Positions 9,795 through 64,000 of a DNA stretch of 64,000 nucleotides are shown piece after piece (the stretch's first letter is position 1; each line of letters begins with the position of its first letter). Source of the DNA: Scyliorhinus canicula (Eukaryota); assembly GCF_902713615.1 (NCBI RefSeq), contig NC_052152.1, forward strand, positions 41,515,810 through 41,579,809. The letters run 5' to 3'. A model generated the notes under the pieces. That model was not told the DNA's origin. It saw nothing but the letters and a program-made list of their open reading frames with translations, and ran no database searches. The translations under genes and the position numbers were made by a program.

Positions 9795-10514
9795 CAGGGG
9801 TGGGCAAACTACGGCCCGCGGGCCGCATGCGGCCCGACAAAGGTTTTTATGCGGCCCGCCAATGAGGTGCCCGGAATCATAACCGGCATTTTTGAAAAGC
9901 CGCCGGGGAAAAGCCGCTGAAGTAAATGCGCATATTCAATAAGCGCATTTACTTCAGCGGCTTTTCCCCGGCGGCTTTTCAAAAATGCCGGTTATGATTC
10001 CGGGCACCTCATTGGCGGGCCGCATAAAAACGCGCGTAGTGGGGTGGATGAGTGGGGCTGTCTCATTGGTCGGTTTAGTTGGGTGGGCGACCAATAGGAG
10101 TCCAGGTTACAAACAATAAGCCTTATTATTGTTTGTAACCTGGACTCCTATTGGTCGCACACCCAACTAAACCGACCAATAAGGCAGCCCCACTCATCCA
10201 CCCCACTACGCGCGTTTTTATCGTTGACTCGGCTAGGCTGTGCTTCTGTCAGTGTTAAGGATCAGCACAAGCAACTTGACACCTGATTTCAACAAACTGG
10301 TAAATGACTGCAGTCAGATGCATCATTCTCATTGACATTGTTCTGTTACTTACTGATTTACTTTGTTTTTCAAATAAATGTGCTTTTTTTTCTTTAAAGA
10401 CCTTTTATTTTGGCTATTTAAAATATTAATTATTTTACTTAATATACTATGCGGCCCTTTAAAATTGTGAATTTCTGAATGTGGCCCTTGCACGGAAAAG
10501 TTTGCCCACCCCTG
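9795..10514. mobile_element. Non-autonomous hAT (Charlie/Buster-type) element
   Basis: TIR CAGGGGTGGGCAAACT / AGTTTGCCCACCCCTG; perfect 8-bp TSD TTATAGAA (9787-9794, 10515-10522) with central TA; two internal palindromes. Confidence 0.92.
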
Positions 10515-53619: not shown

Positions 53620-54507
53620 ACCCCTTACAGTCGGTTAGCCTGAAGGTGATCAGAGCGTCCCATGTGCGTTGGCCCTGGCGCACATGTTGTACCGCCTCCC
53701 ATGCCTGCCTGGACCCCATGTCCTGTAAATCCTCACCCTCCCCCGCATCCTCCTCATTGGACCAGGCCAGACATTCATTCTCCTCCTCCACCATGTCGCC
53801 CCTCTGCTGCACGATGTTGTGGAGGATGCAGCAGGCCACCACGCTACGGGCGACCCTGCCAGCATCACATTGGAGAACCCTCCAGAGGAGTCTAGGCACC
53901 TAAACCACATCTTTAGGATGCTGAAGCATCGCTTGATCACACCCCTGGTCGCTGCGTGGGCATTGTTGTCATGGGTCTCCGCATCAGTCTGTGCCCTCTG
54001 GATAGGCATTTTCAGCCACAATCTCAGTGGAGGACCTGTCACCCAGAAGCCAACCACCAACCGGGGGGCATCTTGAACATGTTCGGAATCGTCGAGTGAG
54101 CCAGGATGAAGGTATCATGCACACTGCCCGGGTATTGGGTGCAGATGTGCATGCTGTGCATTTGATGGTCACACACTAACTGCAAGTTCATTCCCTGGAA
54201 CCCCTTTCGGTTGTTGGAGAGCGGCCTATCATCTGCAGATGCTCGTAGGACGTCATGTATCCCATCGATCACCCTCTGGACTTGGGGCATCTTCGGCGCT
54301 GGCAGCAAACCCCGCTGCCCGGGCAGTCTGGTTGGCTCTGTCTACAATGAAATGGATGTATTGTGCGGACTGGACATACAGGGCCTCTGTGATGTCGCGG
54401 ATGCACCTGTACACCGAGCTCTGTGAGATCTCGGACAGGTCCCCACCCGGCACCTGGATGGACCCTCTGGCGTAAACGTTCTGGGCAACTGTCACCTTGA
54501 CAGGCAC
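53620..54507 (-). pseudogene. Harbinger DDE nuclease (HARBI1-like), frameshifted
   Basis: Motifs across frames: GDLSEISQSSVYRCI, VIDGIH, NRKGFQGMNLQLVCD, YPGSVHD, LLGD, HAATRGVIKRCF..LK..FRCLD, VACCILHN. Confidence 0.88.
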
Positions 54508-56470
54508 CGGGAGCGGATGTTACTCTGCAGAACCAAAGCCAAGGTGAGTGGTCAGCGGGGTGCGCAAAAGATGGCTGCCTTGCAGGCTGCGCCAATAGTG
54601 GTCCATGCCTGGATACCACCCCAGTGCCATGGGGAATCACCCTGGTCCAACCCTGGTCCCTCCATAACCCCCCCCCCCCCGGTCCAGCCAGCCTGGCTAG
54701 AATGTAGCCCGGCAGCCCACGGTCGCGCATCTCCGCGTCCTACCTCCTCCCTCTCCCTCAACAGCCACAGCACCTGTACCTCAATTTTTGAAAGCACAAG
54801 TGAACCTTGCTGTCGGGAATTCCCCCCAGTGAAGGTGGAGAATACCAGGCTAATGATATGCCAACCGCATTTACAGTACTTGCAGAGTGGAACATATTGA
54901 CACACCTTGACACGATTCTCCGCCCAATCGCGTTTCCCGAATCCGGCATCAGCCGGCGGAGAATCCCGCTCCAGTACTTTTAATTCAGAACCAATGAAAA
55001 TTATATCCATTTAACTCAAAGCAGTTACAAACAGCTTTTGATACTGACATTTGTCGATCGGAATAATTTAATTTCATTGCAGTTACCATTCCAGCCCATG
55101 TAAAGCTTCAATAGAAATGGAAGACTGGTCTACTAAATTGCATAGCAACATAATGGGACAGGATTCTCTGGTCCTCGAGCCGCATGTTTCTCACCGACAC
55201 ACCGATTCTCAACTCCCCCTGCTTGTCAATGAGATTTCCCATTGAAGCCACTGCACGCTGCTGGGAAACCTGCGGGAGGGGTGTGCTGGCGGTGGGAACA
55301 GGGAATCTCGACGGCCGGAAAATCCCTGGCCAACATATCTGATTCGGAGAGCACATTTGATTAAATACACAATGATCAAAACCGCAGCTGACTTTCCAGA
55401 AATTAACAAAAATCCAAGAGGCCATTGTCTTGAAAGATTGCATCAAATAAATGAAGCACATATTCTGATAGAATCTGTTGTACCTGATTCAACGTCTGAA
55501 ATAAGAACAGTAAAATTCAAACTCAACATCTGGTGCTGTGCAAGTGTTGCCCCATAACCATAACTGTTCGAATTCTACGCCGACACAGCAAATCTAGCCC
55601 TTTAAAATAAGAATATAAGGGCGTTTTTGGATGTCCCTTGATGTTTGAAGCAATATGCCAACCCCACTGATCTCTCAATATGTTCAGAGAATCATGCAGT
55701 GGTGGAAAAAAATGATACCTAGTGTGAAAATGTTGAATTGCATTTATCTGAAATGATAGGGAGGAAACCTATATCAAGCGGGAGAAAGGACTGGGGCATA
55801 AATAGCAGGTATCCCCTGCTGCAAATAAATAATCAGCACGACAGCCAATTCATGTGTTATTTTGCTGCATCTGCCACTTTTGTGATTCTGTTTCAACTTT
55901 GAAATGAATATTAAGTAGTTGTATCTGTGCGCTGAGATGGTAAGATAAAGAGATCAGATAACTGCACACTGGTGTCACTTTGGAACAATCCTTATCACCG
56001 AAATGTACTTGTGAAATACACACTGCAATGCTGGAGGAGGAAGGAAGTAAACACTGCCATATTACATCACCAGTGCTCTAGTTTTGCCGCAACACTTCAC
56101 AAATGTAGTTTTAAAGGAAAATTTGAGCCCAACACATCGTGTGCATTTCTTCTACGCGTGAACTACCTTCAATGCCAGAACTTTAAAGAGATTCCAGGGG
56201 TTTGCAGGACAGCAGGACTAAGTTAACGGCCAGCCAGTGGTTCCTGCTGCCTTTTCCTTCTTCGGTGAAGATCAAACATCTGGCACTGGAATTCAAAAGT
56301 GTAAGTAGCATGATTTATTTCCTCAATGATTTTTGTGCTTGTCTACCTCAGAGCTAGGTATATGTTGGCACCAGCCCGTCTTCGCTGTAGGCCACACCAG
56401 CTTCAGAGTGAGCATCGAAGAAGTTAGCCATTCCCACTTTTTGCTGGTCATTGGAATGTCACATGTAGTA

Positions 56471-56730
56471 CAGCAAATTTCTGGCCATGGACTATGCATG
56501 GTCCATTAATCGGAATTTAGCGAACAATGCTCTACCTCCAAAATCAGCAGGTCCACTTGATAATGCTTCAGAGAAAAGCAACAAAGATGGTTACAGTTGA
56601 ATTTGCGTTTGTTGGGAGTTTTCATCTTTTTAATTTACTGATATACCTCCTGCTGATTTTGGAGGTAGAGCATTGTTCGCTAAATTCCGATTAATGGACC
56701 ATGCAAAGTCCATGGCCAGAAAATTTGCTG
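56471..56730. mobile_element. Fold-back MITE, about 81-bp TIRs, possibly Tc1/mariner-derived
   Basis: 56471-56551 is the near-perfect reverse complement of 56649-56730; termini CAG...CTG, flanked by TA on the left and TG on the right. Confidence 0.7.
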
Positions 56731-56842
56731 TGGCTTATTTAGCTGTGGCTGTCAAAAAGGGTAACGGATAAGCACCTGAATGGCCAACACGGATGAGTGG
56801 TGTTGCACGTTTTACTATGGGCGTAAAACGCGTTTATTGGGG

Positions 56843-57796
56843 TGTATTAACTTCCAAGTGCTTAACACCACTAGGCTCTGTCTTATGTATTTATTCAGCT
56901 TAGGAGTCGCCAGTTGCCGTATAGACAGCGTCACGAGTATTCCAAGGTCAAGTTCAAAGTAATAAAGACGATACACCGATTAGTAAGGTCCAAACGATAA
57001 TATTTATTATACAGTAATAATAAATATTCATGCACACACTAAGAGACTAAGTTATGACTAAACTAAAGTAATCAGAATACTTATCTAACAGGAACAGGCA
57101 AGGTCAGGGAGCGAGGCCTTCGTCCTGGTCTTGGGCTGCAACCTTCAGCAAGCGTTCTAGTCACTGGGGGTTCTAGCGGGCTTAGTTCGCGTAGCGAGCG
57201 TCGTACTGGCACTTACGGTTCGGCGGCTGGTGCTCAACGGCTGGAGTCAGAGTGGATCTTCAAGTTCTTGGTCAGGGCCGGAGCACGGAATAACAGACCT
57301 TGACCGAAGTTGAGCCGGAGCACGGAAAACAGACCGGACAACACGAGGTCCCTGTCTTTTATAGGGATCCCATTGTCCTTCCCTCTTCTTGGGCGGGCTT
57401 TAACCTTTGGATATCTATTGGGTCAATTCCTCATCGATACTGTTTTAATTCCCCAATGCGAGGGGGTCTCCGTGATGGGGGGGGGGCGTTTCTTATGCCC
57501 TTTTGTTTGGAGGTTTCTGGTGCCTCGATGTCTGGGCCTTGATTCAAATGTGTCCATTCAGAATCAAATGTTTCTATTGTGTGGGTGTTCAGGTCTGATT
57601 GCCTCATTAGCATGCAAAGCGTTTTGCCATTTGCACCTAGCTAAGGTCTTCTCACCTGAGCCCAAACTGGTTTCTGTTACTTGCAGAATGCAAAATGCTC
57701 TCTTTGCAGACTGCTGTTCTGGCTAAACTGTCTGTTTCCCTGCAGACTTAGCGCTTGGCTTATTTTGTAGCTTAGCGTCCATTTTAGGTGGCTACA
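56843..57796 (-). repeat. 3' LTR of the retrovirus-like element (about 950 bp)
   Basis: Begins TGTAGCC right after the PPT AAGGAGGGAA (57797-57806); TATAAAA at 57357-57363; AATAAA at about 57005. Distal end TACA at 56843 is inferred, because the 5' LTR is not in the window. Confidence 0.75.
57352..57363 (-). promoter_or_regulatory. LTR TATA box (TATAAAAGACAG)
   Basis: Preceded on the minus strand by CCAAT-like and GC-box-like motifs in U3. Confidence 0.65.
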
Positions 57797-58159
57797 TTCC
57801 CTCCTTGTGATCCTCACAATCAAAATATTGTGAAGGATCACCTATGTACGTCGCCTTGAGTGCATCTGGGTTGCCTTCTTTGTGTCCCCTGACCTCTTGC
57901 CAGTTCCTGGGCTACTCTATCTTAAACTATGGGAAGAAAATTTTTACCTTACATTTCTACTTGGCGCTATGTCAAAGGGGACATGCATTACCATAAACTG
58001 GGAACCTCTACCTATCACAATTATCCTTAACTTAACTTAAACATTTCCTCACACTCTAAAACCTTAACCATTCACACCACAACATCACATTTCCTAACTC
58101 GGCAGTCGAATATAGGACAATACAATACAGGGTCGAATTTTTATTCATTACACAGTTCT

Positions 58160-58501
58160 TTATTCATCATGGGGCAGAGGGGATTGATGAAATCGGAAAA
58201 TCGGAGATCGAACTCCATAGACGGAAGGGCAAGAACGGGAGGCTCTCCTCTTCCACTTCCTCAACCTGAGGGTCTGTACAAGGATAACGAGGATCGCAAT
58301 CACCAGTAGTGATTCGATTACGTATGACATGGAGTACCATGTCATAAATTTTGTGCACCAGGTCTGAACCTCACTGATCAGAGCTGAGCACTGGGGAGTG
58401 GCTGTAAGGGAAACATTTACTGTGGGGGTTGTGGGGGAAACGTGTCTTGCTTCCACACAAACAGATATAACAGTTAACAACAATAGGTGAGCTTCCATCA
58501 T
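58160..58501 (-). CDS. Small transmembrane protein, 113 aa (signal peptide, short ectodomain, TM, polybasic tail), in the env position
   Basis: Intact ORF from ATG 58501; the second ATG has a strong Kozak context. MMEAHLLLLTVISVCVEA / about 40-aa ectodomain with an NVS sequon and 2 Cys / YVIESLLVIAILVILVQTL / RLRKWKRRASR. Confidence 0.75.
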   Translation of the reverse strand: MMEAHLLLLTVISVCVEARHVSPTTPTVNVSLTATPQCSALISEVQTWCTKFMTWYSMSYVIESLLVIAILVILVQTLRLRKWKRRASRSCPSVYGVRSPIFRFHQSPLPHDE

Positions 58502-59498
58502 CTTCAACTTGGTTTTCCTTCTTTCTTCCTCCTGTATGGACAATCCTTGCTTCGATCCCTGTCTCGTCCTTCGAAAGCTATGGGATCAAGCATAGTATCT
58601 GTCAATACACAGTTTAAGATCTTTACTTGTTAGTGCATCTGTCTTTTATATTCCGATTGACCCTTTAAAAATGACTGGCCAAGTCACACCCTGTGACTCC
58701 CCTCATTTTTTTTTTTCAAAAGCGAATTTGAAGACCAGAATACACCTAACAATCCTTCTTCTGCGACCCGTCTCGCAGGCTTTGCTAGTTTACCATCCGA
58801 ATGTTCCTGGATGTAAATAGCATGTGGGATGGCGGCCTAAGGGCTGCCTAACGAAAAATGAAAACAAAATTTTGAAAGAAACGTCCGAATGAGTTGCGTA
58901 TGGGCCGCTACGGGTACGAGTTGGATGGGGTCCCCGGGTAGGGCGTGCTGTGCCATACCCGAGCTTGGCTGACCAAAGTGGGTTCTCAGACAGGGCGGGT
59001 CCTCAGTGCCATTTGTCCACTGCCTGAGTAACCTGGATTAAAACGGGTACGAATGTGTTAACCGTGACTTGCAGCCTCCATTCGCCGAATAGAGGGGCAC
59101 CTAAAAACAAGGGAGCCAAGATGCTCCTTTTGGGAAATGAGCTGGGCTTCAGACATTTCAGACGATACGGTGAGCTGCTCACCATAGAAGTTCTCAGAGG
59201 TTTCGGCAGAGAAACTATTGTGCGTGTAAGGTGGTCACAAGCCTTACAACTTTGAAAAGATCTCCAATCAAACTGGTGTTTTGGAACCGAAGTTCTCAAA
59301 GGTATCTGCGGACAAACTAACGTGTATGTGAGGTGGTCACAATCTTTTCAGCTGAAAAGAAGATGTCCATCCTCCAGCTGAACCATTTACAGTACTGAGA
59401 CAAAACAAACATAAAACGAAGACAAACATACGTGCAGGTTCCATCAGAAAGGACATCGTTTCCCTCAAACGATTCCTATTTTACATCATCTGGACACC

Positions 59499-62400
59499 TC
59501 ACTTTTCCTCTGTCTCTGTGAACAGGGTCACAAAGGGGTTGCCGTGTCGGGATTCAGACACCGTGTCGTCCTGCTCTCCCGGATCCCACACCCTTGTGTG
59601 GATCTGGCATGATATTTTCGAATTGTGTGACCGGGGGTCACTTTCATCATTGCGGACAAGTCTGTATGAATTGTCCCTGTGCCATAGTGTTGTGTCAAGT
59701 GTGTTGTCGGGGTAGTCGGGGTCGGGTGGTGGGTCTGGGTTTTTAAGGTAAGTGACTTCCATGGGGTCACTGGAGTCGGGGTCGTAGTTGGTGCAGTGTG
59801 GGCTGTATGGCTGTGTGCTGTCGCTGTCCTCAGAGTCAGTGTCTGTCCTGCTGTCTCTGCTGTGGCAGCTTGTGGGCGTTTCGGGGCGTGGTCTGTCGTG
59901 GTCTGTGGGCGGAGTCGTGGGCGAGTCCGTTGATGAACTGGTCTGTGAGGGGGATGGTGGAAAAGTGTCTCTAGTGGGCGGGGTGAAGTGTTCTGCTGCA
60001 TCTAGCAGTACATGATGAGCATGGTTAGACTGTGTTCCATATGCTTTAAGCTGGTTAATATGGAACCACGCGGTCTTCCCATTAGAATATTTTATCCTGA
60101 CAACTGAGGGGCTAATTTTATCCGAAATTGATTATGGGCCGGAATATTTTGGAGCCAAAAAAACTGCTGGGGTTGTAAACAGATAACATTACCTGTTGCC
60201 CAACCTGGAATTCTGTGGGGTGTACGGTCTTATTAAAACAAGCTGTGCGTTGTTGACGGCGTTTGCCTAGCTGAACTGCGGCTGCAATCTGTGCAGACCT
60301 CACAGTCTCAACCAAGTCTTTAACCGTCTTTTCGTGTGTGAGGGCCGTCACTTCGGGGCTGGTCATGTCCAGTCCTAAAAGGAATTCTGTCCCTTTCATA
60401 GGGCGTCCGGTCATGAGTGTGTGGTGTGTAGCCTGTGGAAGTGGAAACAGTGTTCCTTATGAACATGAGTGCAAATGGGAGCACTGAATCCCATGTGGAG
60501 TTATTCTCCTGAACCATTTTTCTAAGGGTAGTTTTTAGAGTCCGATTCATGCGCTCCACAATCCCGCTGGACTGTGGATGATACGCAATATGAAAATTTT
60601 GTTTTATTCCGAATATTGTCAGGACGTTCTTCATGACCCGTCCTGTGAAGTGAGATCCCTGGTCCGAATCAATACTTCGGGGTAAACCCCATCTCGTGAA
60701 GATGTGGTGGGTCAGGATCTTTGCAGTTGTCTTGGCTGTATTTGTTCTAGAGGGGAATGCCTCTACCCATTTGGTGAAGGTGTCGATGACCACCAGAACG
60801 TATTTATAGCCATTCCTACAAGGGGGCAATGGTCCTATGAAATCGATCTGGAGGTTTGTCCAGGGGCCGTTGACTGGGCGAGTATGCCGAAGTTGTGCTT
60901 TCTTAGAATACCTCTCCGGGTTATTCTGAGCACAAATAAGGCAATTCTCAATATAATGTGTGACATCAGTCCTGAGATTAGGCCACCAACAGAGTTGCCT
61001 GAGGTGCCTCGTTGTTGCATCAATTCCCTGATGCCCGTGGTTATCATGGAATAAAGCAATCATTGTATTCCTGTCCTGCTGCGGGACCACATAAAGTTGT
61101 TCCTTTATGATCACACCCTCATGTGTGGTCAGTGCGTGTTTAAAGCTCTCGTACTCTGGCACAAAGTTGCCTTTAAAAACCTCCCGGAGGTCCTTATCCT
61201 GCTTCTGTGCTGCTACAAGATCTTTAATATCTGTCTGTGAGATTTGGACTGTGCTCACAGGGGCGCTAGCTGGTGCGCTAGCTGGGGGGGTCCATAAGTG
61301 TCCTCGCCTGGAACCTGCCTTAGCCAATGCGTCGGCCTTTACATTCCCAGGGGGGGATGACCTATGGTGGCTTCTTACTTTTATTATTCCGAAGGTCCTG
61401 TCCTTCGCTTTTTCTAAAATATGCTGGAGTAGAGGGGCTGATGGAAGGGGTTTCCCGTCTGCGGAGACAAAACCTCGTGTCCTCCACAGGGGCAGAAAAT
61501 CGGTCAAACTGTTGCAGACATATAAGCTGTCTGAATATATGTCTGCTGGGCTGGGGAAAGAAGCGGGGTGGTCCACTATATACGCTATGGCCGCGAGCTC
61601 TGCTGCCTGCGCGCCTAAGTGACCTGGTAGTTTTAGAGCGATTTCTTCGAGAGCGCGCCCCTGCGCGTCCTCTACATAGATGCCGCATCCTGTGATACGC
61701 TCACCATTTAAAACTGTGGAGGAACCGTCCACGTAAATCCTCAGGGGTCCACACGCGTCTGTGGGTTGGGGACTTTGTTTTGGGTTCCCTATCTTCCTGG
61801 GGGGTGTTTTTGCGATAAAGGGTCCTGTGTTATGCAGGGGAGCTACAATTTCACAGTCATGGGGCTGTCCTGGGTATTGGAGGTTGTCTGCTAAATATGT
61901 GTGTGTGCGGGTCCGTTTTACTGTAATGTCCCGTCCTTGTAAGAGTAGTGTCCATCTAGCTGCCCTAATCTGGCTAACTGAACCGTCCTTCAGTCGACCG
62001 TCTAGGAGTAGCTGTGTGGGTGTGTGTTCGGTCAGAATAGTAATGGGGTTGAGTCCGGTAATGTATGAGAAGTATTGTACTGCCCAGAAGACAGCAAGGA
62101 GGTGCCTCTCACAGGCAGAGAATCCTTGTTCTACCGGGTCTAACAGTCGGGAGGCATAAGCCACTGGTCTTAGCTGCTCGTGCCGTTCCTGAAGCAACAC
62201 GGCCGACAGGGTCAGATCGGTGCTCGCTACCTCTATTGCGTAGGGGGAAAGTTGGTCTGGGACTAGCAGCGCGGGTGCTGCGCTAAGGGCTCGTTTTAAC
62301 TCTCCCACAGCCTCTGTATGCTGCGGAAGCCATTCCCAGGGGGCTCCTTTCTTAAGGAGGTCTGAGAGTGGGGCGGCTTTTGTCGCGAATCCGTCGATGT

Positions 62401-63724: not shown

Positions 63725-64000
63725 TCAGTTCGTCTCGTCCACATTGGTGGGTCCTGACTGTACTGCTATATTTTGGATGGGTTTTGCCTTACTGCGGTTC
63801 AGAGTGCCTGTCTGCTGGCCTCTCTGAGATCGCTGGGGTGCATTGCATTCTTTTGCCCAACGCCCTAACTGTCCACAGTTATAGCATTCCTGTCCTTTCT
63901 GCTGTGGGCTGCTCTTCCCTTCATTTACCCATGCGGGTTTCTGGTGCTCTCTCACTGCCTGAATATCTGCGGCAGCCTGAGCCTCTTCTGGGGATTGAAC
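63725..64000 (-). CDS. gag: Gag C-terminus (partial) with a zinc knuckle, ending in UGA in frame with pol
   Basis: ECYNCGQLGRWAKEC (CCHC with His replaced by Arg); TGA at 63727-63725, and the same frame continues into the protease. Confidence 0.85.
   Translation of the reverse strand, partial: VQSPEEAQAAADIQAVREHQKPAWVNEGKSSPQQKGQECYNCGQLGRWAKECNAPQRSQRGQQTGTLNRSKAKPIQNIAVQSGPTNVDETN

Follow-up and report, generated by a model that had tools for sequence, protein, structure and literature searches.

A small membrane-protein gene under selection occupies the env position of a catshark endogenous retrovirus family

The window analysed here is one 64-kb stretch of the genome of the catshark Scyliorhinus canicula (G000), and an endogenous retrovirus (ERV) on its minus strand raises the question of what a short uninterrupted ORF is doing where an env gene would be expected. 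The first-pass annotation proposed a small transmembrane protein of FAST-like architecture, after the reovirus cell-cell fusogens. Whether the ORF is a gene, whether env is missing from the family as a whole and what a protein encoded in this position might do are taken up in turn.

The element, its family and the env position

The element is env-less and about 10 kb long, with its 5' LTR lying outside the 64-kb window. The following parts were located:

56801..57796, minus strand: 3' LTR of about 995 nt, with its twin 5' LTR at G000:C7:41581615-41582608
57797..57806, minus strand: polypurine tract (PPT), abutting the LTR, which starts at 57796
58160..58501, minus strand: small membrane-protein gene of 113 aa in the env slot, identified from the ORF list, the family copies, dN/dS and the homologue P0283
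59499..63724, minus strand: pro-pol, with PR, RT, tether-type RNase H, second RNase H, IN and a Ser/Thr/Asp/Pro-rich tail
63725..64000, minus strand: 3' end of gag (CCHC knuckle) and in-frame TGA-CGG junction

The LTR pair is 99.5% alike over 386 nt and 99.2% alike over 610 nt (about 99.3%), as in a young element, with a 4-bp target duplication (GTGG) at both flanks and a primer-binding site that starts TGGCGAC five bases past the LTR. Gag starts with MAMQ, without the Gly2 needed for myristoylation, and has one CCHC zinc knuckle and, by eye, a coiled coil. Three lesions had originally been counted in pol. Two are real, as the window pol spans three frames owing to one frameshift near 60420 and another near 60150, both within the integrase part. 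The third is the TGA-CGG between gag and pol, which was found in 40 of 40 subfamily-A copies and is therefore the normal gag-pol junction of the family and not a lesion; given the precedent of class III elements and of the snakehead retrovirus (SnRV) this stop is most likely read through (PMC8278194, PMC2717909). After the integrase SH3 domain pol carries a Ser/Thr/Asp/Pro-rich tail of about 200 aa (59499-60100), one that the older subfamily has as well.

A second full-length copy (L023, G000:C7:41584801-41594800) lies in the same orientation about 2.3 kb past the 5' LTR of the window element, with pol about 91% alike, U3 20-29% different and its own LTRs 99.3% alike. Elsewhere the 64-kb window holds many SINE-like copies and tandem arrays, together with near-perfect inverted repeats at 9843-10221 (arms of 94-96 nt) and 56470-56731 (arms of 83 nt). 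Short minus-strand frames at 53650-54290 may be pieces of a PIF/Harbinger transposase.

The family is abundant without env, with thousands of candidates in G000. An integrase DNA query gave 3,783 first-look candidates (40 scored) and the ORF protein gave 5,975, of which the 150 scored were all 96-100% identical and stop-free. A distant query recovered an older copy, L146, with pol DNA 76-78% alike and its own LTRs 95% alike, and the L146 ORF used in turn as query led to subfamilies B and C. The ORF is thus shared by three subfamilies that have diverged from one another (A, B and C), the B and C copies carrying a bias toward intact ORFs since they were found by protein query; C copies with LTR pairs have LTRs 94-95.5% alike. 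Two individual copies depart from the usual layout. L150 (G000:C16:82922000-82928600) is internally deleted, with 5.5 kb between LTR starts, and retains gag sequence and an intact ORF in the absence of pol, and in another copy a nested ERV (L046 / L213) sits just upstream of the ORF; it is unrelated, belongs to class I (epsilon-like) and has an env-like frame of 447 aa.

None of 19 candidate homologues was confirmed with the window protein as query. A C-type query confirmed one of six, P0283, an uncharacterised 204-aa protein of Scyliorhinus torazame with 58% identity over 97% of the query and 47% identity to the window protein over 92 aa. A 336-aa RT fragment (P0009), 81% identical, is sister to all G000 subfamilies and indicates that the lineage is present in another host.

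Both a pol end and the ORF were present at 96 loci, which represent about 81 distinct copies, and at every one of them the stretch between the two has no stop-free frame longer than 159 aa. The initial observation that the interval from the pol stop (59499) to the PPT lacks an env-sized ORF therefore holds for the window and for the copies sampled, and no related copy among these loci has a full-length env; a further 14 loci lack the pol end, and as the sample comes from thousands of copies a rare env-bearing copy is possible. The layout is common to A, B and C, with a spacer after pol of mostly 770-990 nt and the ORF about 710-750 nt before the PPT, outlying spacers being the product of deletions and insertions. 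The spacer contains a 74-nt imperfect direct repeat (78%) at 59187-59360, from which the subfamily-A spacer classes of about 870 and 980 nt perhaps stem.

In the 560 nt upstream of the ORF pN/pS is 0.74-1.29 across the three frames, with no sign of coding, in agreement with the earlier view that this region is not a lightly decayed env. That the ORF is the remnant of a recent env deletion was rejected on the grounds of this non-coding stretch, the 96 of 96 env-less loci and the dN/dS values given below. A longer ancestral ORF, suggested by long upstream frames in the C copies L249 and L250, was also rejected, as only one of 35 motif-bearing C copies exceeds 200 codons and the upstream region shows no coding signature. 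Two other features stand out upstream of the ORF:

58760..59060, minus strand: conserved non-coding block, for the most part 75-85% alike from one subfamily to another, exceeding the ORF
58847..58864 (site 58848), minus strand: acceptor-like polypyrimidine tract and AG, about 350 nt upstream of the ORF

The block is a candidate splicing, export or translation element. Folding of the 601-nt leader gave a z of -2.5, with none of 20 shuffles equally good, and an Rfam search returned no matches. The site at 58848 has the best acceptor-like score in the 1 kb upstream and is present in most A and B copies, the same pattern finding no match in subfamily C, and five short upstream ATG frames lie between it and the ORF. 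Four presumed-RNA runs covering all 30 bins contained no long splice joint among the joints listed, and multi-copy contigs of this kind cannot settle splicing. The A-run before ATGAGGG(G)AGTCAC (58706-58720) is kept at variable length in most A and many B copies and is not a product of decay.

Anatomy of the protein and selection on its gene

The uninterrupted 113-codon ORF runs from 58501 to 58160 on the minus strand, between the pol stop and the PPT (57806-57797), in the env position as first described. The encoded protein can be divided as follows:

58448..58501, minus strand: signal-peptide-like segment, aa 1-18, from hydrophobicity, presumably cleaved
58409..58417, minus strand: sequon N29-x-S31 (N-V-S in the window copy) in a Thr/Pro-rich variable linker
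58322..58360, minus strand: aromatic membrane-proximal segment W48-Y60, with C49, from residue conservation in A, B and C
58268..58330, minus strand: putative transmembrane (TM) helix, about aa 58-78, with invariant E63, from Kyte-Doolittle values and conservation
58235..58267, minus strand: juxtamembrane polybasic patch R79-R89 (RLRKWKRRASR), with R79, K82, W83, R85 and R86 conserved
58184..58222, minus strand: cytoplasmic tail motif V94-Q106, with conserved Y95, S99, P100, I101, F102 and F104

The sequence of aa 1-18 varies, yet hydrophobicity is retained in 87 of the 89 copies (a stop interrupts the segment in the remaining two), and this combination is as in signal peptides. Apart from the N-terminus there is a single hydrophobic peak of TM length (Kyte-Doolittle, 19-residue window, 2.45 at aa 57; stretch 57/58-78). 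The sequon is held at 0.97-1.00 for both N29 and S31 in all three subfamilies and is found in P0283 too, which also partly retains the tail motif. Residues conserved in A, B and C comprise N29, S31, W48, C49, F52, W55, Y56, Y60, E63, L65-L66, Q76, R79, K82, W83, R85-R86 and the Y95/S99-F104 motif. The architecture first read from the window copy (hydrophobic N-terminus, N29-V-S, C38, C49, TM and RLRKWKRRASR) thus stood as described except that its cysteines are not equivalent: C38 (missing in 30 of 30 B and 17 of 17 C copies) and the tail cysteine C91 occur in subfamily A only and, like the Thr/Pro linker, are unconserved across subfamilies, whereas C49 is the sole invariant cysteine (1.00 in A, B and C). 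The proposed ectodomain of about 40 aa holds provided that the signal peptide is cleaved, as its sequence suggests. With a signal peptide, a sequon, one invariant Cys, a TM Glu, a polybasic patch and a tail the protein looks like a type I glycoprotein.

A single-sequence AlphaFold model has helices at 2-20 and 36-89 with modest confidence (pLDDT 66, pTM 0.32) and an unstructured tail, a homodimer prediction scored 0.02 and is evidence neither way, and Foldseek against viral structures returned no matches at E 0.001. The hydrophobic moment of the ectodomain is modest (0.2-0.38), the highest moments in the protein coinciding with the basic patch. Pfam gave weak matches only (E 0.035-0.13, among them adenovirus E3A at E 0.13) and an atlas search found nothing at 0.9, its leads below that value being TMIE, TMEM213, influenza M2 (0.82) and DAP10. 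By eye the tail (Y95-G-V-R) has neither an ITAM nor a YxxPhi motif. Three queries against 69 F-like envs and the env of the nested ERV gave best E values of 0.28-0.78, and P0283 had one weak TM-tail match (E 0.001) among 77.

In order to follow selection we used pairwise Nei-Gojobori estimates over 88 codons in 89 of 97 copies, eight being left out as absent, broken or frameshifted. Between subfamilies dN/dS is 0.18 (A-B), 0.24 (A-C) and 0.20 (B-C) at dS of 1.48, 1.43 and 0.76, with bootstrap ranges (eight copies per group) of 0.09-0.31, 0.13-0.40 and 0.14-0.37 from 88, 97 and 100 usable replicates of 100, respectively. Within the old subfamily B the bootstrap range of 0.23-1.05 is indistinguishable from 1, and integrase is under tighter constraint than the ORF (dN/dS 0.03-0.06). 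Uncorrected pN/pS is 0.29-0.44 in the ORF frame against 0.86-1.50 and 1.68-2.95 in the shifted frames, third codon positions vary most and the ORF alignment has hardly any gaps. Protein-query bias favours intact B and C copies, yet it cannot create the third-position excess. These values indicate that the ORF is a protein-coding gene that was under purifying selection, in its own frame only, during replication of the family. The B-C synonymous distance is 0.76 in the ORF and 2.5 in integrase (L193-L228, L146), a mismatch that suggests recombination between the 3' end and pol, or saturation.

The evidence for selection is dN/dS and not intactness. The first-pass annotation had given weight to an ORF that is intact although pol is broken, and this argument fails when copies are chosen independently of the ORF. 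Among 38 copies ranked by frog Pol the ORF is intact in 33 (one of them behind a nested ERV), broken or frameshifted in four and not found within 20 kb in one, while a full pol frame is present in 31 and a gag-length frame in 19. From the 19 of 38 gag frames simple arithmetic predicts about 87% intact for 342 nt from length alone, which is what was found, so intactness is uninformative about selection; after insertion the ORF decays neutrally in the copy.

Placement of the family and comparison with known systems

The nearest Pol proteins are those of frogs, Xenopus, coelacanth and turtle (37-52% identical) and the best PDB match is foamy Pol. In RT trees with a Gypsy-type outgroup (the careful tree took 54 of 149 rows and its bootstrap is not fully settled) the family and walleye epidermal hyperplasia virus 1 (WEHV1) share a clade with 100/99 support, and the family lies outside a 15-row class I-like group. 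With 100/99 support it also lies outside the clade of L063 (1-10252), a metagenome contig used here as reference for an F-env lokiretrovirus (PF00523 E 1e-5). Uniting the family with the F-env clade was rejected by an AU test on 32 rows (p 0.018), whereas uniting the F-env clade with the family plus its amphibian, coelacanth and turtle neighbours was not (p 0.063). The L063 env has no matches in G000 and neither does PF00523, the latter in a search run without a positive control. Our first reading of the family as lokiretroviral was abandoned on the RT trees, which separate it from the F-env clade, and the AU test. Lokiretroviruses share with it a dual RNase H, common to all retroviruses, and overlapping hosts of the nearest Pol matches; they differ in their paramyxovirus-F-like env, and Wang and Han 2021 report them in none of six chondrichthyan genomes (PMC7947760).

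Viral-contig scans for labelled relatives yielded one distant locus and no labelled SnRV. The family is likely class III and SnRV-like. Like SnRV it has a non-myristoylated coiled-coil Gag with one zinc finger, and its gag and pol share one frame, separated by a stop (PMC2717909), and both have ORFs at the 3' end, which in SnRV are accessory, are expressed from spliced RNA and include a 3'ORF whose protein is nearly dispensable in culture (PMC12193657). SnRV differs in carrying a full env, which the shark family lacks. SnRV-like ERVs are the main ERVs of the coelacanth and occur in the elephant shark (PMC4422223, PMC4977317), matching the nearest Pol relatives of the shark family. Another catshark ERV, ERV-Spuma.0-Sca, was called spuma-like by Song et al. 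2023 and is annotated with 866-nt LTRs, a 2,946-nt pol and a 1,326-nt env CDS (PMC10699275). The present family, with a 4.2-kb pol and a 342-nt ORF, differs from that annotation, and a peptide search of the supplements of that study gave no matches, which is uninformative if they hold DNA only. The nested ERV (L046 / L213) has a layout resembling the ERV-Spuma.0-Sca annotation.

A close comparison can be made with insects. A report of small TM proteins in env-less Drosophila MDG1 elements had been mentioned in the first-pass annotation and does exist (Voichek et al., bioRxiv 10.1101/2025.03.14.642691). Its subjects are Metaviridae of insects, together with nackednaviruses and picornaviruses, and the words 'signal peptide' and 'shark' are absent from its main text. 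In it the MDG1 protein sORF2 co-localises with capsids in protrusions. As in the shark family, an env-less LTR element there encodes a short, sense-orientation, single-TM protein with a juxtamembrane polybasic patch, and in seven of 22 lepidopteran elements sORF2 lies downstream of pol. The sORF2 proteins belong to insect Metaviridae, measure 63-107 aa and are often N-myristoylated, with an ectodomain of about 30 aa and a Tyr right after the TM, whereas the shark protein has a signal-like segment and a sequon, lacks Gly2 and comes from a vertebrate retrovirus. The N-myristoylation motif MGxxxS/T, a filter used by the same authors and missing in two of their six fly proteins, is not present in the ORF protein.

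The reovirus FAST proteins (p10, p14, p15) are likewise of 100-200 aa with a small ectodomain, one TM, a polybasic motif and a short tail, and their fusion peptide is either myristoylated or built as a cystine loop (PMC7830690). As the first-pass annotation itself cautioned, they have no signal peptide, using a reverse signal anchor, and they are not glycosylated (PMC3952855). An amphipathic endodomain helix is a further FAST feature; the shark protein has its highest hydrophobic moments on the basic patch and a tail modelled as unstructured. The shark protein differs in its signal-like segment and conserved sequon, with cleavage and glycosylation probable from sequence, and in the absence of both Gly2 and a conserved C38/C49 pair that could form a p10-like cystine loop. 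The FAST-like architecture originally claimed is thus reduced to size, one TM and a polybasic patch, and as two defining features failed the protein should not be filed as a FAST protein. This mismatch lowers the case that it is a FAST and not the case that it works like sORF2. Retroviral Env of gamma type or F-like type has a large ectodomain, a furin site and a fusion peptide, in contrast to the shark protein with its ectodomain of about 40 aa and no env similarity.

Possible roles of the protein

The reading we tentatively favour, at rather less than even probability, is that the ORF stands in for Env and aids cell-to-cell spread of an env-less class III (SnRV-like) family. The protein would be made from a subgenomic, probably spliced, RNA, and its signal peptide would direct it through the secretory pathway, where it would be N-glycosylated, to the plasma membrane, with export aided by the polybasic patch. 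Once there it could oligomerise through its invariant Cys and TM Glu, and the conserved tail would gather capsids, built from a Gag without Gly2, or host cytoskeletal adaptors at cell contacts. Capsids would pass straight into the adjoining cell (say, a germ cell receiving them from the soma), in the way proposed for insect sORF2, with the ORF protein either fusing membranes or only building the contact. True FAST-like fusion carries about half the probability of the Env-substitute reading, and we regard it as unlikely. It is similarly unlikely that a retroviral lineage swapped its envelope for an unrelated fusogenic glycoprotein of about 95 aa and entered the shark germline by direct cell-to-cell fusion.

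A stand-in for Env is suggested by the frame-specific selection, the constant env slot and the lack of an env alongside in the copies examined, and by the precedent of sORF2 with its capsids in protrusions and its position downstream of pol in 7/22 elements. The homologue in Scyliorhinus torazame, the success of the family without env (full pol in 31/38), the L150 copy that keeps gag and an intact ORF without pol, and the Gag start MAMQ, without Gly2, are also in its favour. Since copying within germ cells alone should need no surface glycoprotein, a cell-surface role in passing capsids is preferred, and a role in cell-to-cell spread is plausible on these grounds. Against it stand the missing FAST hallmarks together with the modest hydrophobic moment of the ectodomain, the lack of a splice joint among those listed, the five upstream ATGs that follow the best acceptor, and the acidic residue within the TM, which also fits receptor-binding accessory proteins. 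Further points against it are that env-less ERVs can multiply inside germ cells without any surface protein (cited in bioRxiv 2021.11.23.469661) and that the SnRV 3'ORF protein is nearly dispensable in culture (PMC12193657).

Ranked close behind, and possible though somewhat doubtful, is an accessory, host-modulating type I glycoprotein that would bind a host membrane protein through its TM Glu and a Cys-linked dimer. It would counter restriction or immunity or drive growth of the expressing cells while the element multiplies inside germ cells, and may be a 3' accessory gene kept after env loss. Vpu, papillomavirus E5, SFFV gp55 and mimics of DAP10/DAP12 offer analogies. The invariant C49 and E63, the conserved sequon and the signal-like segment suit such a protein, and the weak leads (TMIE, TMEM213, influenza M2 and DAP10, all below 0.9, and E3A in Pfam at E 0.13) are of this kind; there is no significant homology to any of these proteins and no ITAM or YxxPhi is evident by eye in the tail. 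The presumed relative SnRV does have 3' accessory ORFs made from spliced RNA (PMC12193657), but an accessory role leaves unexplained why env is absent, with its slot filled, from every copy examined.

It appears improbable that the protein is an ancient Env cut down by internal deletion to signal peptide, membrane-proximal region, TM and tail, which would anchor capsids during budding and depend for entry on env-bearing class I ERVs elsewhere in the genome. The order of signal peptide, aromatic segment, TM and basic tail does equal the two ends of an Env, the ORF sits in the env slot behind an acceptor-like site, and G000 is rich in gamma-type env genes (1,386 candidates, of which 78 were scored), one such ERV being nested in L213. 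The protein is nevertheless without similarity to the 69 F-like envs or the nested env (E 0.28-0.78), save for the one weak P0283 match at E 0.001, and the deletion would have to predate the split of A, B, C and Scyliorhinus torazame, at which synonymous sites are near saturation (dS about 1.4). An oligomeric viroporin, a small channel aiding particle release, is very improbable: its size, its single TM with a polar residue and the weak M2 atlas lead (0.82, below 0.9) would fit, but viroporins do not typically have a cleavable signal, a glycan site or an ectodomain segment that is both long and conserved. A non-functional frame, conserved through the youth of the copies or an overlapping RNA signal, is hardly tenable, since the length-predicted decay after insertion (33/38 intact), the range of 0.23-1.05 within subfamily B and the finding of B and C by protein query are set against a dN/dS of about 0.2 that is specific to the ORF frame, with dS reaching 1.5, an excess of third-position changes, an almost gap-free alignment and conservation in a second species, Scyliorhinus torazame.

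The mostly openly readable literature that we searched contains no description of a small TM gene replacing env in a vertebrate ERV. The ORF is real and selected, and such a gene is apparently undescribed in this setting. Env-independent small membrane proteins of LTR elements are already known, and the present case concerns a vertebrate retrovirus and a different build. Searches for env, or for PF00523 next to pol, would miss such elements, and two surveys required env in their searches (PMC4422223, PMC10435555). Env-less ERVs are thought to multiply inside germ cells, where no surface protein is needed. A surface glycoprotein selected across deep subfamily splits and in a second catshark suggests that some step in the life cycle takes place at the cell surface, and raises the question of whether a vertebrate retrovirus can spread without Env. 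Should the protein fuse cells, it would add a new small fusogen, of a mini-fusogen class with a signal peptide, and give insect sORF2 its first counterpart among vertebrates; otherwise it would represent a new family of retroviral accessory proteins.
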